Source of the DNA: an uncultured Gemmatimonas sp.
Lineage (GTDB): Bacteria > Gemmatimonadota > Gemmatimonadetes > Gemmatimonadales > GWC2-71-9
Length of the DNA stretch: 54,288 nucleotides
NCBI GenBank assembly: GCA_964649225.1
Contig: CAZYPO010000002.1
Coordinates: 48,384 to 102,671, forward strand
Direction: 5' to 3'
Part shown: piece by piece, positions 9,442 through 47,022 of the stretch
How positions within the stretch are numbered: the stretch's first letter is position 1
How the letters are laid out: each line of letters opens with the position of its first letter
Position numbers and translations under genes: made by a program
Notes under the pieces: generated by a model
Database searches by the model: none
Seen by the model: the letters and a program-made list of their open reading frames with translations, nothing else
Told to the model about the DNA's origin: nothing

Positions 9442-10679
9442 GTTATCGAGAGTCCCAGCACGTCCATCACATCGCCCACTGTGTGGAACGATCCGGTTAC
9501 CAGCACCGTCTGCGCTCTATCCTGCACCCGCCGCAACGCCTCGGTGAAATCCGGGATCAGCTGCCAGGCCGCACGGGCCGGGGGACGCTGCGGATCTTTG
9601 AGCCAGTGGCGCAGCCACTCGAGGTCCCAGCGCCGCCCGGCCGCGCTCGGGGCGACCGTCAGGATACCGCGGTCCACGACTTGGTCGAGCCGGACCAGCA
9701 TCTCGGGCCAGGCCTTTTCGCCCAGAATCGAGACCAGCGCGTGAATCGGCCGCGGCGGAGCCAGCTCCTCTATGCTGCGACAGAGCGCCGCGATCCCATC
9801 GGGATTGTGCGCCACATCAAACAGCCACTTGCCATGGCGGTCCAGCCGCCCCGGGACCGTGACGCTCCCGAATCCTTCGCGAATGGCCTCGGGCACCGGA
9901 CGATAGGGCGCAGGCAATGCTTCCAGGACCGCCTCGGCCACCGCCGCATTCCTGCGCTGGTGCCGACCCGCCAGCGCGAGCGGACCGTGGTACTCTGCCT
10001 CGGCTGGCACCACCCGCACATCGGCCTCGGCGCCTGGCTCGATCGTTCGGACCGCGGCGCCCGCCTCGGCGCGCAGCACGGCGATGAGCTCCGGTCTCGT
10101 TTCGCCCACGATGAACGGGGCGCCCGGCTTCGCGATCCCGGCCTTCTCACGGGCGATGGCCGCGAGCGTATCACCCAGGTATTTCTGATGGTCCATCTCG
10201 ATCTTGGTGACCGCGCTGGCCAGCGGACGCACCACATTCGTGCTGTCGAGCCGACCGCCGAGCCCGACCTCGATAACCGCGACCTCCGCGCCGCGCGCCG
10301 CCAGGTCGGCGAACGCCACCGCCGTCGTCGTTTCAAAGAATGTAGCGCCCAGCCGGTCTGCAAGCGGGAGTAAGCGCTCCACCCACATCGCCGCTGCCTC
10401 CTCGCCGATCGGCCGGCCCTCCACCATGATTCGCTCCCGGAAGGAAACCAGGTGGGGCGAGGTGTAGGTCCCTACCCGCCAGCCGGCGGACCGCAACGCC
10501 GCCGCGATCAACGCGGTGACGCTGCCTTTCCCGTTGGTCCCTCCCACGTGCACCACCGGCATCACCGTGTGTGGGTCGCCCAGCTCGGCCAGCAGCGCGC
10601 GAGTCGTGTCCAGCCCGAACTTGATCTGGGTGACGCGGGCGTAGAGGTACTCGAGGGCGCCGGCGTAGCTGAGAGACAT
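9438..10679 (-). CDS. folC: folylpolyglutamate synthase / dihydrofolate synthase
   Basis: HVGGTNGKGS, YTSPHL..FRERI, TFFETTT, IEVGLGGRLDSTNV, EKAGI, DVAHNPDG. Confidence 0.94.
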   Translation of the reverse strand: MSLSYAGALEYLYARVTQIKFGLDTTRALLAELGDPHTVMPVVHVGGTNGKGSVTALIAAALRSAGWRVGTYTSPHLVSFRERIMVEGRPIGEEAAAMWVERLLPLADRLGATFFETTTAVAFADLAARGAEVAVIEVGLGGRLDSTNVVRPLASAVTKIEMDHQKYLGDTLAAIAREKAGIAKPGAPFIVGETRPELIAVLRAEAGAAVRTIEPGAEADVRVVPAEAEYHGPLALAGRHQRRNAAVAEAVLEALPAPYRPVPEAIREGFGSVTVPGRLDRHGKWLFDVAHNPDGIAALCRSIEELAPPRPIHALVSILGEKAWPEMLVRLDQVVDRGILTVAPSAAGRRWDLEWLRHWLKDPQRPPARAAWQLIPDFTEALRRVQDRAQTVLVTGSFHTVGDVMDVLGLSIT

Positions 10680-10692
10680 GAAGAGACTACGG

Positions 10693-10736
10693 CTGTTGGC
10701 GGTCAGCCGTTAGCCGTTAGCTGTAGTTGTGAGTAG

Positions 10737-10740
<4 letters not shown>
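10693..10740. repeat. degenerate heptamer array (CCGTTAG-like, about 7 units)
   Basis: CTGTTGG CGGTCAG CCGTTAG CCGTTAG CTGTAG TTGTGAG TAGTTAG between accD and folC. The last unit contains the accD TAA. Confidence 0.7.
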
Positions 10741-11606
<866 letters not shown>

Positions 11607-22786: not shown

Positions 22787-23692
22787 TCACCGTCCGCTCC
22801 TTGCCACCGCCGCCACCCCCTCCGGCAGTGTCAGCGGGACCTGCTCGGGCCAGGCCCGAAACACCGCCCCCGCCTTGCCCCGCGCCTTCGCGCGGTACAT
22901 GCAGGCGTCGGCCATGGCCACCGCGGCGTCGATCGAGTCCGGTGGGGCCGTGAAGGTGACCGCCCCGATGCTGAAGGTGACCTCCCAGCCCTCCCGCCGC
23001 ACCACTTCGTCCAGCAGCGACAACACCTTGTTGACGATAGTCTCAGCCTGCTCGGCATCGGTCTCCGGCAGGAGCAGGGCGAACTCGTCACCGCCCAGCC
23101 GAGCCACCACGTCGATGCGGCGGGTGCCCTCGCGGAGGGTCCGCGCCACCCGCCTCAGCACCTCATCGCCCACGCCATGGCCGAGCGTGTCGTTGATTTT
23201 CTTGAAGTTGTCCACGTCGAGATACGCCAGCACCCAGGACATGCCCTGGCGCCGGCTCCACTCCACCGCCCGGTCCAGCGCTCCGAAGAACGCCCGCCGG
23301 TTGGGGATGCCGGTGAGCGGGTCTTCGCGAGCCAGGGTCCGGAGCTTCACGGTCTGCTCCGCCAGCAACGAGACCAGCGCGGAAATGAAGAGGAAGAAGA
23401 GCAGCTGTGCCACGCTGTTCCAGACCAGGTACGGGGAAGCCAGGCCGCCAGGGCGGCTCAACCAATCCAGCGCGATGCGGGTTAGGGTTGTCAGCGCGGC
23501 GAACCATACCCCGGCCGAGCGGCCCAGGTGCCACGCCACTGCCACGATGGGGGGGAGATAGAAAACCGCGATCTCCATTCCCGCGCCGGCGCGGAAATCG
23601 AACCACGCAACCGCGGCCGTCACCAGCAGGCTCCCGGCCAGGATGGCCCAACCGGGGACTCGGCGCAGGGCCGCGTTCAGTCGAATCAACAT
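22787..23692 (-). CDS. membrane-bound diguanylate cyclase (about 4 TM + GGDEF)
   Basis: DPLTGIPNRR, LDVDNFKKINDTLGHGVGD, ARLGGDEF. Start at ATG 23692 is preceded by TACTCT-N6. Confidence 0.9.
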   Translation of the reverse strand: MLIRLNAALRRVPGWAILAGSLLVTAAVAWFDFRAGAGMEIAVFYLPPIVAVAWHLGRSAGVWFAALTTLTRIALDWLSRPGGLASPYLVWNSVAQLLFFLFISALVSLLAEQTVKLRTLAREDPLTGIPNRRAFFGALDRAVEWSRRQGMSWVLAYLDVDNFKKINDTLGHGVGDEVLRRVARTLREGTRRIDVVARLGGDEFALLLPETDAEQAETIVNKVLSLLDEVVRREGWEVTFSIGAVTFTAPPDSIDAAVAMADACMYRAKARGKAGAVFRAWPEQVPLTLPEGVAAVARSGR

Positions 23693-23839
23693 GGTCAAAG
23701 AGTAATGAACGCTTCAGGCCCGAGACAGCAGCACACCCTGCGGGGCAAGGCGCTGCGGCTCCGCCTCCCTACACTGCATCGCAACGCTTTCCGCGGCCGC
23801 CGTGTCTATATCTCTGACTTTGTCATTAAAATGAGCGCC

Positions 23840-39020: not shown

Positions 39021-40574
39021 CTACAAAGGAATATTCCCGTGCTTCTTCTTGGGATTGGCGTCCCGCTTGGATCGGAGCATCCGCAGCGCGTCGATCAGGC
39101 GGGGCCGGGTGTCGCGGGGATCGATCACGTCGTCGACGAAACCGCGTGCCGCGGCCTGGTACGGATTCGCGAACGCCTTGGTGTATTCGTCCAGGCGCCG
39201 CTGCAATTCGGCCGCGGGATCCCGGGCTCCGCCAATCTCTTCCTTGAAGAGGATCTCCACTGCCCCGCGCGGCCCCATCACCGCGATCTCGGCGGAGGGC
39301 CAGGCCAGGTTGACGTCGCCGCGGATGTGCTTCGAGCTCATCACGTCGTACGCTCCGCCATAGGCCTTGCGGGTGATCACCGTGAGCTTCGGCACGGTGG
39401 CCTCGCAGTAGGCGTAGAGCAGCTTCGCGCCGTGCCGGATGATCCCGCCGTGCTCCTGTGCGGTGCCCGGGAGGAATCCCGGCACGTCCACGAACGTCAC
39501 GACGGGGAGGTTGAATGCGTCGCAGAAGCGGATAAAGCGCGCCGCCTTGACCGAGGCGTTGATGTCCAGCACGCCGGCCAGCACCGCGGGCTGATTGGCG
39601 ACGAGACCGACGCTGCGACCCCCCAGCCGGGCAAACCCCACCAGCATGTTCTGCGCAAAGCCGGCGTGCACCTCGAAAAAGTGGCCCTCATCGACGACGG
39701 CACTGATGACGGAGTGCATGTCATAGGGCGTCGCGGGCGATTCGGGGATCACCTCGAGCAGGCGCTCGTCGCGGCGATCCTCGGGATCGCTCGAGGGGCG
39801 GCTGGGCGGCTCGGCGAGATTGTTGGAGGGCAGGTACTCCAGCAGCTCGCGGATCGCGGCGAGACATTCCGGCTCCGAAGCGTAGACCGCGTGCGCGATG
39901 CCGGAGGTCGCGCCGTGGATCTCCGCTCCGCCGAGGGTCTCGAAGGTGACTTCCTCGTGGGTCACGGTCTTCACCACGTTGGGGCCGGTGACGAACATGT
40001 AGCTCACGCCTCGTACCATGAACACGAAGTCGGTGATCGCGGGGCTGTAGACGGCGCCGCCCGCGCAGGGGCCCAGAATTGCCGAGATCTGGGGAACTAC
40101 ACCCGAGGCGAGCGTGTTACGCAGGAAGATGTCGGCATAGCCGCCCAGCGAGGCGACGCCTTCCTGGATGCGCGCGCCGCCCGAGTCGTTGAGGCCGATG
40201 ACCGGTGCGCCGTTCCGGAGCGCCAGGTCCATCACCTTGCAGATCTTCTGGGCGTGGGTCTCGGAGAGGGAGCCGCCGAAGACCGTGAAGTCCTGGGAGA
40301 AGACGTACACCAGCCGCCCGCCGATCCGGCCGTACCCGGTCACCACCCCGTCACCCGGGTATTGCTGCTTCGCGAGACCGAAGTCGGTGGCCCGGTGGGT
40401 GACGAAGCGGTCCAGCTCTACGAAGCTCTCCTCGTCGAGCAGCAGGTCCAGCCGTTCGCGTGCGGTGAGCTTCCCCTTCCCGTGCTGTTGCGCCACTCGT
40501 TCGGGGCCCCCGCCCTGCTCGGCTTCGGCCTGGCGGCGATGGAGCTCGGCGAGGAGGTCGCGGGGAGAGGGCAT
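39021..40574 (-). CDS. pccB: acyl-CoA carboxylase carboxyltransferase (PccB type)
   Basis: [67 protein letters not shown]. Start at ATG 40574. Confidence 0.9.
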
Positions 40575-40591
40575 GGCGCGGGAAGATAGTG

Positions 40592-40614
40592 CTGGGTCCT
40601 GGGTACTGGGTACT
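40592..40614. repeat. CTGGGTA heptamer x3
   Basis: CTGGGTC CTGGGTA CTGGGTA CT between the barrel gene stop and the pccB start. Confidence 0.7.
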
Positions 40615-40633
40615 CCATCCGCCATCCCGCAAA

Positions 40634-41383
40634 CTACCAGCGAACGAATGCTCCCAGCGTCACACCGGAACGTCGGGGTTGGCCCTCATCGGCCGCCAGC
40701 GAACCGCCGAGAGTCACGCCCCACGACGCACCAAGAAGCAACTGCCACCGCGCCGACAGCGATCCGGAAGCGCGGCGAACCACCGATCCGGGACCGAGAG
40801 TCACCAACTCACTGCCATAGCCTCCGGCCAACTCAAAAAACCGGTCTCGGTCTCCGGCGTACCTCCGGAGCAGCAGTGCGCCGCCTGGTGAAACGCCATC
40901 GGAATGATCCGCAAGCAGGACGCGCGCCCGGAGATACCAGGAACCCAGGTACCGGGCCACCCCGCCGCTGTAGATACCGATCGTCTGGCTCTCAAACGCC
41001 ATTCGCCGGTATCCCACCGAGGCTTCCCACCCGCGGACTGGAGAATGGAAAAGCTCCGCAGCGAGGTCCGATTCAGGAAGAATCTCCGCACCGGCGGCGA
41101 GCTGCACCCGCAGGTTCCCATACGTCCCGGGGCGAAAGAGCACATATCCGTCCGCCGCGAAGGCGAGGTCGCTGGCGCCGAACCGTGTGCTTCCCAGGGC
41201 CTCCGCCAGCACCGAAGCCCGCCTGGTGCGTCTGCCACCGGTGATCGCCCAAGCCTGCCAGCTCGAGCCGGGTCCACTAACGGACTCGACACCATATCGC
41301 GCGGCGGCATACCAGGCCGGCGCGACGTTGCTGTCGGCAGGTGCGGTCCAGACAAGTACAGCGAGCAGCCCGGCTGTCGTCAC
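40634..41383 (-). CDS. outer-membrane beta-barrel, YaiO-like
   Basis: GTG 41383 overlaps the GT2 TGA. Short signal peptide, alternating amphipathic strands ([33 protein letters not shown]) and a terminal aromatic (GAFVRW). 249 aa. Confidence 0.75.
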
Positions 41384-42783
41384 GAGGTCGGCGCCGTGGC
41401 GAAGCCGGTTCGAGTCATGGTGCCCCACCCGCGCTGCCCGCGCCAGGCGCCCACCAGACCCCGGATCCTCCACCAAGTGTTGAGTTGGCGGTACCCGAAC
41501 GGCTCCAGAGCCGCCATGATCATGAGCCTGCCAAGATCGGTGACCCGGGGATAGCGCCGGATGGACATCTCTTCGAGCGCGATTGCGGCCATCGAGAGCA
41601 CCGCCCCCAGAACGAAGGCGAACAAGAAGAACGCGAGCATGAAGGGAGGATTCACCCGTCCCAGCGCGAGCGCGATGCCGAAACCGAGGTACCCGAGCAG
41701 CTCGATCAGCGGACCCAACATTTCCAGAAAGAAAAAGTACGGATAAGCCACCATTCCGAGGAATCCGTATCGGGAGCGGAATAGCATCCCGCGGTGGCGA
41801 ACCATGACCTGGGCGAGCCCGCGCTGCCACCGTTCCCGTTGCCCGCCGAGGTTTCGGAGCGTCTCGGGCGCCTCGGTCCAGGCCACTGGATCCGGAACGA
41901 ACACGAACCGGTAGGCCTCCCCCCGCTCGCGGAGCCGCCGATGCAGGCGAACGACGAGCTCCATGTCTTCGCCTACGGTGTCGGTGGCGAACCCCCCGAT
42001 TTCAACCACCGTCCTGCGGCGGAACAGGCCGAAGGCTCCGGAGATGATGAGCGTGCCGTTGAGCATCGACCATCCCAGCCGCCCGGCCAGGAAGGAACGC
42101 AGGTATTCGAGGACCTGGAAGCGCGCGAGCAGGCTTTTCGGAAGCTGAACCCGGGTTACCTGGCCCTCACGCACCGTGCACCCGTTGACGATCCGGATCA
42201 CCCCTCCTACGCCAACCGTGTCGGCGTTCTCGAGGAACGGGCGTACGATCCGGGTCAGGGCATCCCGCTCCAGGAGGGTATCGGCGTCCATCGCGCAGAA
42301 CAGCGGCGTGCGGCAGAACGCGAGTCCGGCGTTCAGGGCATCCGCCTTCTTGCCGTTGACCTTGTCGAGTACCCAGAGGCCGGGATGCTGGCGGCTGTGC
42401 CAGATTCCCCGCAGTTCGGCATGGGAGAGGTGCGCGGTGGGTGCCCGGACGGCGGGCTCGAGGTCGAAGGCCTCGAGCAACCGGGCCGCCGTCGCGTCGG
42501 TGGAGCCGTCGTTGATCACCAGGATTTCGTAGTCGGGATAGCGGAGTGTCAGCAGGGCTCGCACCGCCTGGACGATGGTCGCCTCCTCGTTATGCGCCGG
42601 GACCAGCAGCGTAATGGGAGGCACGGCGCCCAACGAAATCAGATCTTCGACATCTACGGTCCGCAGCCGTCTGGCATACCGGCGCAATGCCACGACGGCA
42701 ATCCCGGTTGTAATCAAATAGACCAGGTTGATCAATCCGAAATACCCCAGGACGAGCAGGTTGAAGGCATCGAGGAGAAACAT
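41380..42783 (-). CDS. processive family 2 glycosyltransferase (PgaC/IcaA/chitin-synthase-like)
   Basis: N-terminal TM, VPAHNEE, NDGSTD, KADALNAG, MDAD (DxD), ISGAFGLFRR, VGEDMEL, QRERW (QxxRW) and C-terminal TMs. ATG 42783 overlaps the HEAT gene TGA. Confidence 0.9.
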   Translation of the reverse strand: MFLLDAFNLLVLGYFGLINLVYLITTGIAVVALRRYARRLRTVDVEDLISLGAVPPITLLVPAHNEEATIVQAVRALLTLRYPDYEILVINDGSTDATAARLLEAFDLEPAVRAPTAHLSHAELRGIWHSRQHPGLWVLDKVNGKKADALNAGLAFCRTPLFCAMDADTLLERDALTRIVRPFLENADTVGVGGVIRIVNGCTVREGQVTRVQLPKSLLARFQVLEYLRSFLAGRLGWSMLNGTLIISGAFGLFRRRTVVEIGGFATDTVGEDMELVVRLHRRLRERGEAYRFVFVPDPVAWTEAPETLRNLGGQRERWQRGLAQVMVRHRGMLFRSRYGFLGMVAYPYFFFLEMLGPLIELLGYLGFGIALALGRVNPPFMLAFFLFAFVLGAVLSMAAIALEEMSIRRYPRVTDLGRLMIMAALEPFGYRQLNTWWRIRGLVGAWRGQRGWGTMTRTGFATAPTS

Positions 42784-43820
42784 CAGCCGCGCGCCTCCAT
42801 CAAAGCCTGGCCGGCGATCACCGCCACTCTTCCAGAACCGGCCGCAGCACTCCTCAACAACCGACCGTCGCCGAACCGCGCGAGGGCCCGTCCCGCTTCC
42901 ATGGCCACCCACGGTGATTCGTCGTGCAGGTACTGAAGCAGGCGGGGGAGTTTCGCCGGCTCCTCGAGCGATCCGAGCGCGCGCACCGCGTGCTGGCGAA
43001 TGACTTCATCCGGTGAATCGGCGAGGAGACGGATCGCCGCAAGGTGCCCGTCGTGGCCGACGACTGCCAGCAGGCGAAGACAGGCCGAGACCAGGTCCCG
43101 GTCGGTCACCCGCTTCGCCACCGAGGCGGCGACCGAGCCGGCCGGCAGATAGTTGAGTTTCAGGAGCGTCCTCGCGGCAACTTGCCGCACGCGCACCGAG
43201 GCGCTTTCGTCGGCGAGCACGTCGAGCAGTGCCGGGCTCACCGAGGACCCGATGGCCGCGAGGATCGACGCGAGAAAACCTGGATCCCAGGCTGCGAAGC
43301 GGTCGAGCCGGCCCAGCAGGTCCGGGGCGCTGGCCGCGTGCTCGGGCCGGGCCAGCGCACGCATCGCCGTCATTCCGACGAATTCTGAAGGGTCATTCAG
43401 TGCAGCGCTCACGAGCTCAACATGCCGATCCATGCCGAGCAGACCGAGCGCATGCACCGCCTGGGCTCGATACCCCGCATCCCGATGCCTGGCACGCTTC
43501 ACGAGATGAGGCAGGTAGGGCCGGACCACCTCCGCGCAGCGAGACCGTTCTTCCCCGCGCAACCGCCGAGCGAATCGGGAAACAACTTCCAGGAGATAGC
43601 GCTCCTCCCCCCGGCGGACTACCGCGTGCAGCTCGGTCGGCGACCGCACTCCGGCCAGCACCTGGAGGAGCAGATCGTGCCACCGCGCCTCGACCAGCGC
43701 CCAGCGGTGGGCCACCAGTGCGTTCCGCGCCCGGAGCACCCCCGCCAGTGCGGCGAGTGCGAACGTGATGAGAAGCAGGAGCCCGATGCCGACCACGAGG
43801 ACCGAAGCGGCGTCGGTCAC
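42783..43820 (-). CDS. membrane-anchored HEAT/PBS-lyase repeat protein
   Basis: One N-terminal TM, then repeats YRAQAVHALGLLG, VGMTAMRALAR, VRQVAARTLLKL, IRQHAVRALGSL, VAMEAGRALARFG. Confidence 0.82.
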   Translation of the reverse strand: MTDAASVLVVGIGLLLLITFALAALAGVLRARNALVAHRWALVEARWHDLLLQVLAGVRSPTELHAVVRRGEERYLLEVVSRFARRLRGEERSRCAEVVRPYLPHLVKRARHRDAGYRAQAVHALGLLGMDRHVELVSAALNDPSEFVGMTAMRALARPEHAASAPDLLGRLDRFAAWDPGFLASILAAIGSSVSPALLDVLADESASVRVRQVAARTLLKLNYLPAGSVAASVAKRVTDRDLVSACLRLLAVVGHDGHLAAIRLLADSPDEVIRQHAVRALGSLEEPAKLPRLLQYLHDESPWVAMEAGRALARFGDGRLLRSAAAGSGRVAVIAGQALMEARG

Positions 43821-43833
43821 GGCCCGGTCTCGT

Positions 43834-44922
43834 TCATGGCGCGAGGAGCCGCCGGACCCGGGCAGTCACCTCCCCGGGCGAAAACGGCTTGAGCACATAG
43901 TCCGTGGCCCCGAGGGAAAACGCCTTCACAAGGTCCGCTTCGGCGCCGAGGGCCGTCAGCATGACGATGGGGATCTTGGCCCAACCCGCCATCGCCCGCA
44001 GCCGGGTCAGTACGGAGAAGCCGTCCAGGCCGGGGAGCTTTACGTCCAGGATCACGAGACTCGGAGGGCCCGCGGCGGCAACCTGAAGCGCCTCGAGTCC
44101 GTCCGATACCGCGTGCACGCGAAAGCCGTCGCGCTCGAGCCGATGGCGCAAGACCTCGACCGTGAGATCGTCATCTTCGACGAGCAGAACATCCGCCGGC
44201 CCTTCGACACCCGCCTCGCTGCCCGCCGGGCCCCGGGGCGATGAGCCGCTTCGCGGCGAGTCCGCCCGCGCGCCGACCGCCCGAGCGAGCCGGGCGGTGA
44301 CGGCCGCGCCGATTGCGGCTGCGTTGAGGGGCTTCTGAAAGAATCCGTCGGCGCCAAGGGCATAACACTCTGCTTCGGTCTCCGGTCCCAGGGATGGCGA
44401 GATCGCCAACAGCGGCACCTGCGCCGTATGGCTCATGCGGCGCAATCGGCTGAGGAGCTTTCGCCCATCCTCGTCCGGCAGGACCAGATCGACCAGGATC
44501 AGGTCCACCGCCTGCTCGGCAAGCAGCTCGGTGGCCTCACGGGAGCTCTCGGCTACGAGGATGCGGCGGCCGGGAGCGCCAAGCGTTCCGGTGAGGAGAG
44601 AGCCGACCTGCGGATCATTGCCCACGAGCAGAATGGTTCGAAGCGGGATCGGCCCGGTGGCGGCACAACGGACGGCGATCTCGAACAATTGCTCGGCCAC
44701 GCTGAGATCAAATTCGGATTCCCCAATGGGGCGAGCAGCTTCGGTGATCTCCGGGAATCCGAACGCCGCTCCCGTTCCTTTCAGATCGTGGGCGAGGCGG
44801 CGAATCGCGTCCCAACCCCGATCGGATCCCGAGGCGGCAAGATCGATCGCGGCCCGGAGCGCATCGGCATGGACGGGGAGACGCGTCCGATAGATCTCGC
44901 GGAGCGAGGCCGGGTCGGTCAT
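43834..44922 (-). CDS. Hpt-REC-REC phosphorelay protein with no output domain
   Basis: Hpt motif LAHDLKGTGAAFGF; REC1 DLILVDLVLPDEDG...QKP; REC2 VEDD...LVILDVKLPGLDG...MLTA...LKPF. Confidence 0.85.
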   Translation of the reverse strand: MTDPASLREIYRTRLPVHADALRAAIDLAASGSDRGWDAIRRLAHDLKGTGAAFGFPEITEAARPIGESEFDLSVAEQLFEIAVRCAATGPIPLRTILLVGNDPQVGSLLTGTLGAPGRRILVAESSREATELLAEQAVDLILVDLVLPDEDGRKLLSRLRRMSHTAQVPLLAISPSLGPETEAECYALGADGFFQKPLNAAAIGAAVTARLARAVGARADSPRSGSSPRGPAGSEAGVEGPADVLLVEDDDLTVEVLRHRLERDGFRVHAVSDGLEALQVAAAGPPSLVILDVKLPGLDGFSVLTRLRAMAGWAKIPIVMLTALGAEADLVKAFSLGATDYVLKPFSPGEVTARVRRLLAP

Positions 44923-45149
44923 GCCGGCACCGGGACCGGGGACTCGAGGCCGGGCTCGCGGCGGGGCGAAAGCTCGAAGTATCGACGCGAGATCGTGTCC
45001 TCGCCTTGCTCGAACGCATCAAAAATGGAGGCGTGGCGGTGGAGGGCCCGGATGAGCAGGCCATTGTCCGTACAATGGTCGATCGGGGCTAGTCGTCTCA
45101 TGCTCTCGCATCCTACGGGGAACATCGCTTCCTGCGCCCGAAGCACCAT
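44919..45149 (-). pseudogene. probable remnant of a histidine-kinase HATPase_c domain
   Basis: TDNGLLIRALHRHASIFDAFEQGEDTISRRY resembles the G1 (DxG) and F boxes but lacks the following GGxGLGL G2 box. Its stop overlaps the Hpt-REC-REC ATG (ATGA). Confidence 0.5.
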
Positions 45150-45253
45150 GAAAACAACGGGTTAGAAGGATGATCTCCTGAATCCGGGCAAGCTCCGGGC
45201 CATCTGGCGGGATCCAGACACGGATTGGCAGGCGCGGATGCCGGGGCCGGAGC

Positions 45254-45290
45254 AAATTCAAACGGCTGAGAGCGTCCCGCCCTCAGCCGT
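45254..45290 (-). terminator. intrinsic terminator after rpsA
   Basis: Minus strand ACGGCTGAG-GGCGGGACGCT-CTCAGCCGT followed by TTGAATTT. Confidence 0.7.
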
Positions 45291-45318
45291 CCTCCTCCGG
45301 TCCTCACGGTCCGGTGCC

Positions 45319-47022
45319 CTACTCGATCACGTCCTCATCCGGCGGGGGAATCGGCCGGGGCGGCAGCGGCTCGAAGGGCTCGTCCGGAAATCCCGTGACC
45401 CCCACCACGACGCGGTGGTGAATCGGATCCACCTCCAGCACCTCGACGTCGAGCGGCTGTCCTTCCTTCACCACATCGCCCGGGTTCTCGACGGCCTGGT
45501 CGGTGCCGAGGTGCGACATCGGCACGAAGCCCTCGAGGTCGTTGCCCAGGTCGACCACCACGCCCTTGTCCATCAGGCGTACCGCACGGGCGCGCATCCG
45601 GGTGCCCACCGGGTAGTTCTCGCCGATCCGCAGCCAGGGATCCTCTTCGGCCTGTTTGAGACCGAGCGAGATTCGCTTGTTCTCGGCGTCGATGTTGAGT
45701 ACTACCACATCCACCGCGTCGCCCTTCTTCACCACTTCGGACGGATGCTGCACCCGCTTGGTCCAGGACATGTCCGAGATGTGGATCAGGCCGTCAATGC
45801 CCGGCTCCAGCTCTACGAAGGCGCCGAAGCTGGTCAGATTGCGGACCTTGCCCTGAATGCGGGTCCCGACCGGGTAGCGCTGCGGCAGAATCATCCAGGG
45901 ATCCTGTTCCGTCTGCTTCATGCCGAGGGAGATCTTCTCCTCGGTTTCGTCCACCTTGAGCACCACCGCTTCGATGGTCTCGCCGATCGAGACGATCTTC
46001 GAGGGATGCCGCACGTTCCGGGTCCAGCTCATCTCGGAGATGTGCACCAGGCCCTCGATGCCCGGCTCGAGCTCGACGAACGCGCCGTAATTGGTGATCG
46101 AGACCACCTTGCCCTGCACCCGGGTGCCGACCGGATACTTCTCGGAGACATCCTTCCAGGGATAGTTCTGCAGCTGCTTCATGCCCAGCGAGATCCGCTC
46201 GCGCTGCCAGTCGATGTCGAGCACCTTCACCTCGACCTCGGTGCCGATCTGCACCAGCTCGGTCGGGTGCGACACCCGGCCGTAGGACATGTCGGTGATG
46301 TGCAGCAGACCATCCACGCCGCCCAAGTCAATGAACGCGCCGAAGTCGGTGATGTTCTTGACGATGCCCTTTCGCACTTGGCCGACCTCGAGCTCCTTCA
46401 TCAGATGCTCACGCTTGCTGGCGCGCTCGGTTTCCAGAATGACCCGGCGGCTCACCACGATGTTGCGACGCCGCTTGTTGAGCTTGATGATCTTGAATTC
46501 GTAGCTCTGGCCCAGCAGCTCGTCGATGTTGGGCACCCGGCGCAGCGCGATCTGCGAGCCGGGGAGAAACGCGTCGACGCCCATCACATTCACGACCACC
46601 CCGCCCTTGATCTTCTTCATCAGGGTGCCTTCGACCGGCTGATCGCTCTCGTACGCAATGCGGATCTTTTCCCAGACCCGCATGAAGTCGGCCTTCTTCT
46701 TGGAGAGCACCACCGCGCCCTCCTGGTCTTCCAGGTGCTCGAGGAAGACCTCGACCTCATCGCCCTCTTTGGGAACGTCCTTGAATTCGTCGAGCGGGAC
46801 CGATCCCTCGGACTTGAAGCCGACGTCGAGAATCACCGCGTTCTCGGTGACGCGCAGCACCTTGGACTTGACGATCTCGCCCTCGGCGATGGACGCCATG
46901 GTGCCCTCGTACATCGAGAGCATCTTCTCGTAGTCTTCGGAGCTGTAGCTCTCGTCGATGAGGTCTTCGCGGACCCGGAGGCCCGTGTGGGTGGACAGCA
47001 TATCGGGAGTGGGATGGCTCAT
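45319..47022 (-). CDS. rpsA: 30S ribosomal protein S1
   Basis: DVGFKSEG, AFLPGSQ, VKNITDFGAFIDLGG, ITNYGAFVELEPG, LTSFGAFVELEPG S1 repeats. Start inferred at 47022. Confidence 0.95.
   Translation of the reverse strand: MSHPTPDMLSTHTGLRVREDLIDESYSSEDYEKMLSMYEGTMASIAEGEIVKSKVLRVTENAVILDVGFKSEGSVPLDEFKDVPKEGDEVEVFLEHLEDQEGAVVLSKKKADFMRVWEKIRIAYESDQPVEGTLMKKIKGGVVVNVMGVDAFLPGSQIALRRVPNIDELLGQSYEFKIIKLNKRRRNIVVSRRVILETERASKREHLMKELEVGQVRKGIVKNITDFGAFIDLGGVDGLLHITDMSYGRVSHPTELVQIGTEVEVKVLDIDWQRERISLGMKQLQNYPWKDVSEKYPVGTRVQGKVVSITNYGAFVELEPGIEGLVHISEMSWTRNVRHPSKIVSIGETIEAVVLKVDETEEKISLGMKQTEQDPWMILPQRYPVGTRIQGKVRNLTSFGAFVELEPGIDGLIHISDMSWTKRVQHPSEVVKKGDAVDVVVLNIDAENKRISLGLKQAEEDPWLRIGENYPVGTRMRARAVRLMDKGVVVDLGNDLEGFVPMSHLGTDQAVENPGDVVKEGQPLDVEVLEVDPIHHRVVVGVTGFPDEPFEPLPPRPIPPPDEDVIE

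Follow-up and report, generated by a model that had tools for sequence, protein, structure and literature searches.

What does a run of four genes in an uncultured Gemmatimonas sp. assemble, and what switches it on? The genes occupy positions 40634-44922 on the minus strand of a 54,288-nucleotide (nt) stretch of contig CAZYPO010000002.1 (assembly GCA_964649225.1), referred to here as the window. In order, the four co-oriented open reading frames (ORFs) encode a regulator with a histidine-phosphotransfer domain and two receiver domains (Hpt-REC-REC), a HEAT-repeat protein with a transmembrane anchor (TM-HEAT), a family 2 glycosyltransferase (GT2) and a barrel of the YaiO family. To our knowledge, all well-studied synthase-dependent exopolysaccharide systems (cellulose, poly-N-acetylglucosamine (PNAG), alginate, Pel and Nfr) are switched post-translationally by cyclic di-GMP (c-di-GMP). 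On balance, we favour the view that the four genes encode a synthase-dependent polysaccharide secretion machine whose activity would be set by a phosphorelay acting through the receiver, with the HEAT protein as partner of the synthase and YaiO as the pore.

Reading of the ORFs and their junctions bore out the gene layout given by an earlier sequence-only reading of this DNA. The HEAT and GT2 genes overlap by 1 nt (cTGATG), the GT2 and barrel genes overlap by 4 nt (GTGA), and 13 nt separate the regulator stop codon TGA from the HEAT start (Table 1). These overlaps are not an assembly artefact, because independent metagenome contigs are colinear with the window and carry no indels in the genes: 63-93% of the sequence's words were present in eight runs from two freshwater-sediment metagenome studies, and contigs from four of those runs were colinear across 40500-45400, with single-nucleotide polymorphisms only and 0 indels inside genes. 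The genome (a 3.34-Mb assembly of 195 contigs) holds a single copy of the module. Searches with Pfam and NCBIfam found no PilZ or MshEN domain, no PgaD- or PelD-like domain, no deacetylase and no TPR in the four proteins, and a scan for sigma-70 promoters and terminators gave no match exceeding shuffled controls.

The GT2 protein has the make-up of an inner-membrane processive synthase. Its D, DxD, (T/G)ED and QxxRW motifs (D93, D167xD169, E273-D274 and Q316xxR319W320, in the numbering of P0003, which runs one above the real protein position) do not vary among 15 orthologues drawn from several phyla, and hydrophobic segments at residues 1-35 and 356-409 lie on either side of the catalytic domain, so that the complete motif set and flanking transmembrane segments proposed earlier stand. 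The best NCBIfam match was PgaC_IcaA (TIGR03937), at 137.5 bits and thus below its equivalog cutoff of 422.3; CelA was also among the Pfam/NCBIfam family matches. Set against the synthases of E. coli MG1655 by BLASTP, the protein ranked PgaC first (27% identity, E = 5e-32), followed by BcsA (2.7e-16), YaiP (2.9e-10) and NfrB (1e-3), and the best match among solved structures was BcsA (3.5e-11, residues 55-380). In the GT2 tree, PgaC falls outside the family on a very long branch. As far as sequence can tell, the enzyme is of the processive type claimed for it, related to PNAG synthases and not a PgaC/IcaA equivalog. Our best guess at the product is an N-acetylhexosamine (HexNAc) polymer; a GH20 hexosaminidase gene beside the module in one distant locus is a weak hint in the same direction. 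The GlcNAc-based composition raised earlier as a possibility is at most hinted at, by this gene and by PgaC as the nearest characterised enzyme.

The genes are also tied together by their neighbourhoods. We analysed a set of 86 loci found through GT2, using six-frame profile searches. In 83 of them, the gene immediately upstream of GT2, on the same strand, is a HEAT orthologue. Of the three exceptions, two have a contig that begins within GT2, and one (L067) has its upstream HEAT gene in the opposite orientation. Immediately ahead of HEAT, in nearly all loci and across at least eight phyla, stands a receiver domain, which is either a stand-alone REC of 120-150 amino acids (aa) or the C-terminal receiver in a larger regulator. 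A YaiO gene comes after GT2 in about one third of the loci. It is missing from the Actinomycetota loci, as expected because these bacteria are monoderm, and many loci without it lie on short or truncated contigs. The same gene pattern was found in the gene tables of five independent metagenome contigs. The co-conservation proposed for the genes was thus recovered, in nearly all loci for the REC-HEAT-GT2 core and in a minority for YaiO. Judged by this synteny, the arrangement is not a product of chance.

The loci belong to Gemmatimonadota, Fidelibacterota/Marinimicrobia, Rhodothermota, Actinomycetota, Elusimicrobiota, Lentisphaerota and Acidobacteriota, with one Sericytochromatia metagenome-assembled genome (MAG). 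GT2 has more than 8000 word-indexed homologues, the best of them 61-84% identical, and identity across phyla runs from 54 to 84%; homologues of both HEAT and GT2 bear Gemmatimonadales and Gemmatimonadota names. A GT2 scan of one genome per species confirmed at least 594 relatives, the best 80 of which fall in Gemmatimonadota, Fidelibacterota/Neomarinimicrobiota, Salinibacter and other Rhodothermales, Acidimicrobiia and other Actinomycetota, and Elusimicrobia, together with single Lentisphaeria, Sericytochromatia, Saprospiraceae and Polarisedimenticolaceae bins. The GT2 of the "Saprospiraceae" locus L070 is nearly identical to that of the actinomycetotal L083, and the GT2 of the "Lentisphaeria" locus L052 nests inside Marinimicrobia (L051, L054) with almost no divergence; both placements likely reflect mis-binning and not transfer. 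With the HEAT profile, 4594 representative clusters were matched at E<=1e-30, and about 137 of the best 150 matches were full-length proteins of 340-390 aa. A word-indexed HEAT search had returned 21 proteins, which badly underestimates the family, and was superseded by the hidden Markov model scan and the synteny.

We then considered what the HEAT protein adds to the synthase. The protein has a transmembrane segment at about residues 5-30 and a solenoid of about nine repeats; an AlphaFold2 model built from 46 sequences (mean predicted local distance difference test (pLDDT) 96.2, predicted TM-score 0.89) shows a helix spanning residues 2-55 and then 19 shorter helices. All 79 HEAT homologues share a strongly hydrophobic N-terminal segment, and their mean count of lysine plus arginine in the 15 residues on each side of it rises from 0.7 before to 4.3 after. 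From this bias, an N-out orientation and a cytoplasmic solenoid are predicted, in agreement with the location assigned earlier. The orthologue P0161 (539 aa) carries a signal peptide, an SH3_3 domain, the transmembrane segment and the HEAT repeats in that order, which is consistent with the same topology. SH3_3-type domains are usually tied to cell-wall binding; in the P0161 lineage the partner protein thus also extends outside the cytoplasm, possibly as far as the cell wall. The residues conserved across phyla are mostly structural VR..AA.ALG repeat positions, together with the juxtamembrane Trp47. Foldseek searches with the model matched generic solenoids only (alphaRep, ARM/armadillo, PP2A-A, karyopherin and CpcE/F), with no known polysaccharide-synthase subunit among the matches, and a sequence search of solved structures returned designed alphaRep proteins only; neither result is informative on function.

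The barrel belongs to the YaiO family, as had been proposed. It ends in ...FVRW, scores 108.8 bits with PF19413 (cutoff 23.9; E. coli YaiO itself scores 92.7) and 127.3 bits with TIGR04390 (cutoff 32) over positions 2-230 of the 230-position model, and has no TPR domain according to Pfam. Its AlphaFold2 model (pLDDT 90.7) is a 14-stranded barrel in which residues 1-19, the signal peptide, are disordered; the top structural matches were to the 14-stranded OmpG (TM-scores 0.62-0.65), and CymA was also matched. An in-house YaiO profile matched none of E. coli YaiO, NfrA and PgaA, and the comparison with E. coli proteins was made with Pfam instead, which places NfrA and PgaA in other barrel families than YaiO. 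The very short signal peptide, beginning at the GT2 stop codon, is common to relatives of the barrel. A GTG start further upstream, at 41428, would provide a better signal peptide; it was rejected as unconserved, and L061 has a stop codon there. The barrel is functionally tied to the synthase by three independent relatives (L004:8981-11113, L032:6683-9460 and P0059) in which GT2 and YaiO are joined in frame into one protein of about 710-720 aa. These proteins keep a signal-peptide-like stretch directly after the conserved cytoplasmic GT2 tail GWGxMxRxGF, which implies that this hydrophobic stretch can serve as an internal export signal and suggests either internal cleavage or an unusual tether.

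By a residue check, the Hpt domain and the receivers of the window's regulator carry what a His-Asp phosphorelay calls for; in REC1, D145 is accompanied by the Ser and the Lys. The receiver next to HEAT keeps its key residues across the family: over 75 loci, conservation is 90% or higher for each of the acidic-pocket Asp, the phospho-acceptor Asp and K-P-F, and 60% or higher for the Thr. The domains ahead of this receiver vary, the architectures before HEAT being stand-alone REC, Hpt-REC-REC, Hpt-REC-GGDEF-REC and Hpt-REC-GGDEF-REC-REC. Among the 86 loci, a GGDEF domain stands between two receivers in about 36 regulators, and about 33 others have the form Hpt-REC-REC or consist of REC only. 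Canonical motifs (GGEEF) occur in 13 loci from Marinimicrobia, Fidelibacterota and Lentisphaeria bins. In 23 loci, mostly Gemmatimonadota, the motif is degenerate (TGGAF, SGAEF, SACEL, FPGAA, AADEF, DVDNL and others), and it is absent from 33, which include the window's clade and all Actinomycetota loci. Mapped on the GT2 tree, GGDEF presence changes at least eight times. The window's clade (the window, L001, L018 and L005) lacks the domain entirely, and in its near relatives L007 and L055 the motif is degenerate. REC1 is homologous in regulators with and without GGDEF (64 homologues share the LDL.LPD.DGR block and keep Asp, Ser and Lys), and in the window a linker lies at the GGDEF site, so the window's Hpt-REC-REC is a GGDEF-deletion derivative. 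The lack of GGDEF is thus, on these comparisons, a derived state of the window's lineage and not a trait of the family. That GGDEF decayed repeatedly while the receiver next to HEAT was fully kept speaks for this receiver having a direct role, without proving it.

No histidine kinase is encoded within the window, and in many orthologous loci a hybrid kinase is encoded in cis. The Marinimicrobia locus L017, for instance, has in order a 1188-aa hybrid kinase (PAS/GAF/HisKA/HATPase/REC-REC), a 512-aa Hpt-REC-GGDEF-REC protein, a 132-aa REC, TM-HEAT, GT2 and a 515-aa TPR-YaiO protein. Elsewhere in the genome of the window, three large tandem ORFs at C4:3706-12994 match the module-linked hybrid kinases of relatives with E ~1e-108 to 1e-115; this similarity makes them candidates for the input to the orphan Hpt-REC-REC. 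Taken as a whole, the window member is set apart by its deleted GGDEF, its TPR-less YaiO, a decayed extra receiver (described below) and the lack of a kinase in cis.

These observations can be assembled into a working model. The membrane-embedded GT2, processive as read from its sequence, would polymerise a nucleotide sugar and move the growing chain through the inner membrane. The HEAT protein would be its obligatory partner, with the transmembrane segment and conserved juxtamembrane helix packed against the synthase and the solenoid in the cytoplasm, and the polymer would cross the outer membrane by way of the 14-stranded YaiO barrel. His45 of Hpt may be phosphorylated by a hybrid kinase whose gene lies elsewhere in the genome, and the phosphate would pass from it to the receivers; the C-terminal receiver, phosphorylated at Asp293, would then dock on the HEAT solenoid, or on HEAT and GT2 in complex, and turn synthesis on. 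In relatives, the regulator presumably also makes c-di-GMP through its GGDEF domain, an activity that would have decayed in Gemmatimonadota and been deleted in the window's clade, where the phosphorelay would be the only locally encoded input. A more far-reaching version is possible, and we offer it tentatively: REC-HEAT-GT2, with YaiO added in diderms, may form a separate synthase class in which a phosphorylated receiver directly gates GT2 by way of a HEAT co-subunit anchored in the membrane, the family having passed from phosphorelay plus c-di-GMP to pure phosphorelay, with the window as an end state.

Several observations weigh against the phosphorelay model. The two contacts on which it depends, HEAT with GT2 and REC with HEAT, are ones that we infer. 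The Gemmatimonadales loci L078 and L079 have HEAT-GT2 with no REC nearby, the acidic pocket of REC1 in the window is GND and not DD, and at least four hybrid kinases encoded outside the window, on the genome contigs C4 and C83, score alike against the module-linked kinases of relatives. The module is also patchy in the window's family, where a HEAT homologue (E<=1e-30) is found in 24 of 201 genomes and 11 of 99 genera, and the window locus lacks both a periplasmic scaffold and a modifying enzyme. A REC-TM-HEAT fusion in a Salinivenus MAG (L080:5412-6992, identical to P0222), the sole fusion of that kind found, conflicts with the N-out topology; it could be due to a lost stop codon or a hairpin transmembrane segment. 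We set this protein aside as Rosetta-stone evidence for REC-HEAT contact, the REC lying on the wrong side of the transmembrane segment in a single case; its close relatives L042 and L059 have REC and HEAT as separate genes. The weightiest point is that about half of the family encodes GGDEF, so that the true activator could be c-di-GMP, made in this lineage by some other cyclase. The earlier reading noted no c-di-GMP receptor and proposed phosphorelay gating; the former stands for the window's four proteins, in which no receptor domain was found, and independence from c-di-GMP is not supported for the family, in view of the orthologous regulators with GGDEF.

A model built on that last point would have HEAT and GT2 jointly act as a c-di-GMP receptor, in the manner of PgaC-PgaD, with the nucleotide made by unlinked cyclases and Hpt-REC-REC left over from a former cyclase as a mere relay, scaffold or phosphate sink. 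It draws on the canonical GGEEF motifs of the Marinimicrobia and Lentisphaeria bins, on L004, L042, L059 and L080, where a GGDEF or GGDEF-EAL protein is encoded by its own gene a short way upstream, and on the precedent of PgaCD and NfrB-DgcJ (PMC8669469). The window itself has, about 17 kb from the operon at 22790-23713 on the minus strand, an ORF with an intact GGDEF motif that is a possible unlinked source of c-di-GMP. We nevertheless find this model rather doubtful: the four proteins contain no PilZ, MshEN, I-site-bearing GGDEF or PgaD-like domain, the HEAT-adjacent receiver retained its phospho-residues through all the changes in GGDEF presence, and GGDEF is missing in 7/7 Actinomycetota loci. 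An unlikely alternative takes the product to be a cell-envelope glycan (a periplasmic or wall polymer, or a glycolipid) made by GT2-HEAT, with YaiO as an optional accessory porin. The roughly two thirds of loci without YaiO, many of them in diderm Gemmatimonadota, would fit such a role, as would the core in monoderm Acidimicrobiia, the extracytoplasmic SH3_3 domain on one HEAT orthologue and a window locus with no TPR scaffold, deacetylase or hydrolase. Against it, synthases that polymerise and translocate are marked by QxxRW, ED and DxD together with transmembrane helices C-terminal to the catalytic domain, GT2 is fused to YaiO in three cases, a TPR-YaiO protein comparable to PgaA and NfrA occurs in Marinimicrobia, and many YaiO-less loci lie on short or truncated contigs. 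We give little credence to the idea that the regulator is unrelated to the synthase and feeds an unlinked transcription factor or another pathway, its adjacency reflecting co-transcription. The regulator does have no output domain and no kinase in cis, and the decay of an upstream stand-alone receiver suggests relaxed selection on part of the relay; yet a REC stands directly before HEAT in at least eight phyla and in several architectures, with gaps that are tight or overlapping.

How does the proposed phosphorelay-set secretion machine compare with known systems? Of the components that mark synthase-dependent exopolysaccharide systems, the window's operon has the GT2 synthase and the outer-membrane barrel, and neither a TPR scaffold nor a c-di-GMP receptor domain. 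Judged by sequence relationships, the module appears to be a variant of these systems, closest to PgaABCD, NfrBA-DgcJ and yaiO-yaiP. With PgaABCD/IcaADBC it shares a processive GT2 (PgaC is the nearest characterised one), a membrane partner gene abutting the synthase gene and an outer-membrane barrel in the operon. Its partner is, however, a 345-aa one-pass HEAT solenoid, compared with 137 aa for PgaD, its barrel is a 14-strand YaiO without TPR and not a PgaA_barrel, and it has a phosphorelay protein in cis with neither a PgaB-type deacetylase nor a c-di-GMP receptor. The absence of a periplasmic TPR scaffold, noted earlier, holds at the window locus and not in Marinimicrobia orthologues, where TPR is fused to YaiO. 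The TPR-barrel of these orthologues, which encode their own cyclase as well, parallels NfrA.

The E. coli NfrB-NfrA-YbcH/DgcJ system likewise has a GT2 synthase, an outer-membrane protein partnering it and a signalling enzyme that acts locally, DgcJ, which is dedicated to NfrB (PMC8669469). In contrast to the window, NfrB carries a C-terminal MshEN c-di-GMP domain and NfrA an NfrA_C barrel (Pfam found both in the E. coli controls and neither in the window's four proteins), and HEAT proteins and receiver domains are not part of Nfr. The only model-organism locus that we found to pair a YaiO-family barrel with a membrane GT2 is E. coli yaiO-yaiX-yaiP-yaiS, which is uncharacterised and differs in having an acyltransferase pseudogene and an LmbE-type deacetylase and no HEAT or receiver. 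BcsA-BcsB resembles the module in structure, with a best match that takes in the GT domain, QxxRW and the helices after it, and in its post-translational control via a cytoplasmic module attached to the synthase, as proposed here; its fused PilZ with c-di-GMP, periplasmic BcsB and BcsC TPR-barrel have no counterpart in the operon. Full-text literature searches found no description of a REC-HEAT-GT2/YaiO system, in keeping with the earlier view that the system is undescribed.

The region ahead of the regulator records the decay of a further receiver gene. The orthologous locus L001, whose proteins are 68-82% identical to those of the window, retains an intact stand-alone receiver of 122 aa. In the window, a leader and the first ~60 nt of this gene are about 80% identical to L001; DNA homology then ends and restarts just before the regulator ATG, about 317 nt having been deleted relative to L001 within the receiver gene. 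What is left is a 76-codon ORF, in which MRRLAPIDHCTDNGLLIRAL aligns with MRRLTLIDDCADNRLLIQALL of the L001 receiver (REC122) by tblastn. The remnant is in an identical state in independent metagenome contigs, and its homology to the L001 receiver gene ruled out an interpretation as a decayed histidine-kinase fragment. A sigma-70 consensus scan gave no match in the leader (Table 1). Downstream of GT2 or TPR-YaiO in other loci, proteins of about 400-485 aa with no Pfam match (L017:9928-11124 in Marinimicrobia; L052:8401-9609 and 9652-11106 in Lentisphaeria) are candidates for further components of the system and are absent from the window. In high-GC loci, the 408 ORFs read among the downstream neighbours were mostly spurious.

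Table 1 Features of the operon and its leader in the window, with the domains of the regulator.
Feature	Coordinates	Strand	Basis
Hpt-REC-REC regulator, 362 aa	43834-44922	-	Pfam Hpt 9.7e-08; Response_reg 8e-46 in 2 stretches
TM-HEAT protein, 345 aa	42783-43820	-	HEAT_2 2e-27 in 3 stretches; one N-terminal hydrophobic segment
GT2, 467 aa from ATG 42783	41380-42783	-	Glyco_tranf_2_3, Glyco_trans_2_3, weak Chitin_synth_2 match
YaiO barrel, 249 aa	40634-41383	-	PF19413 4e-31; TIGR04390 8.7e-37, full model length
Hpt domain, His45 in AHDLKG	44653-44904	-	Pfam and residue positions
REC1, Asp145, GND pocket	44287-44640	-	Pfam and residue positions
Ala/Gly/Ser/Pro-rich linker, 31 residues, at GGDEF site of relatives	44194-44286	-	
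REC2, Asp293, Thr323, Lys345, DDD pocket	43852-44190	-	Pfam and residue positions
Remnant of stand-alone receiver gene, 76-codon ORF	44919-45149	-	REC N-terminus at 45003-45101
Non-coding leader, probable promoter region	45102-45202	-	~80% DNA identity to L001 equivalent

If the phosphorelay model is true, a HEAT protein and a phosphorylatable receiver would amount to a different control logic for the production of biofilm matrix or surface glycan. The family spans thousands of protein clusters in diderm and monoderm phyla, mostly uncultured, and forms a natural series from active cyclase through dead cyclase to no cyclase, which makes the role of the receiver without c-di-GMP testable. In sediments, soils and oceans, its product could be relevant to how Gemmatimonadota and Marinimicrobia aggregate and turn over carbon.

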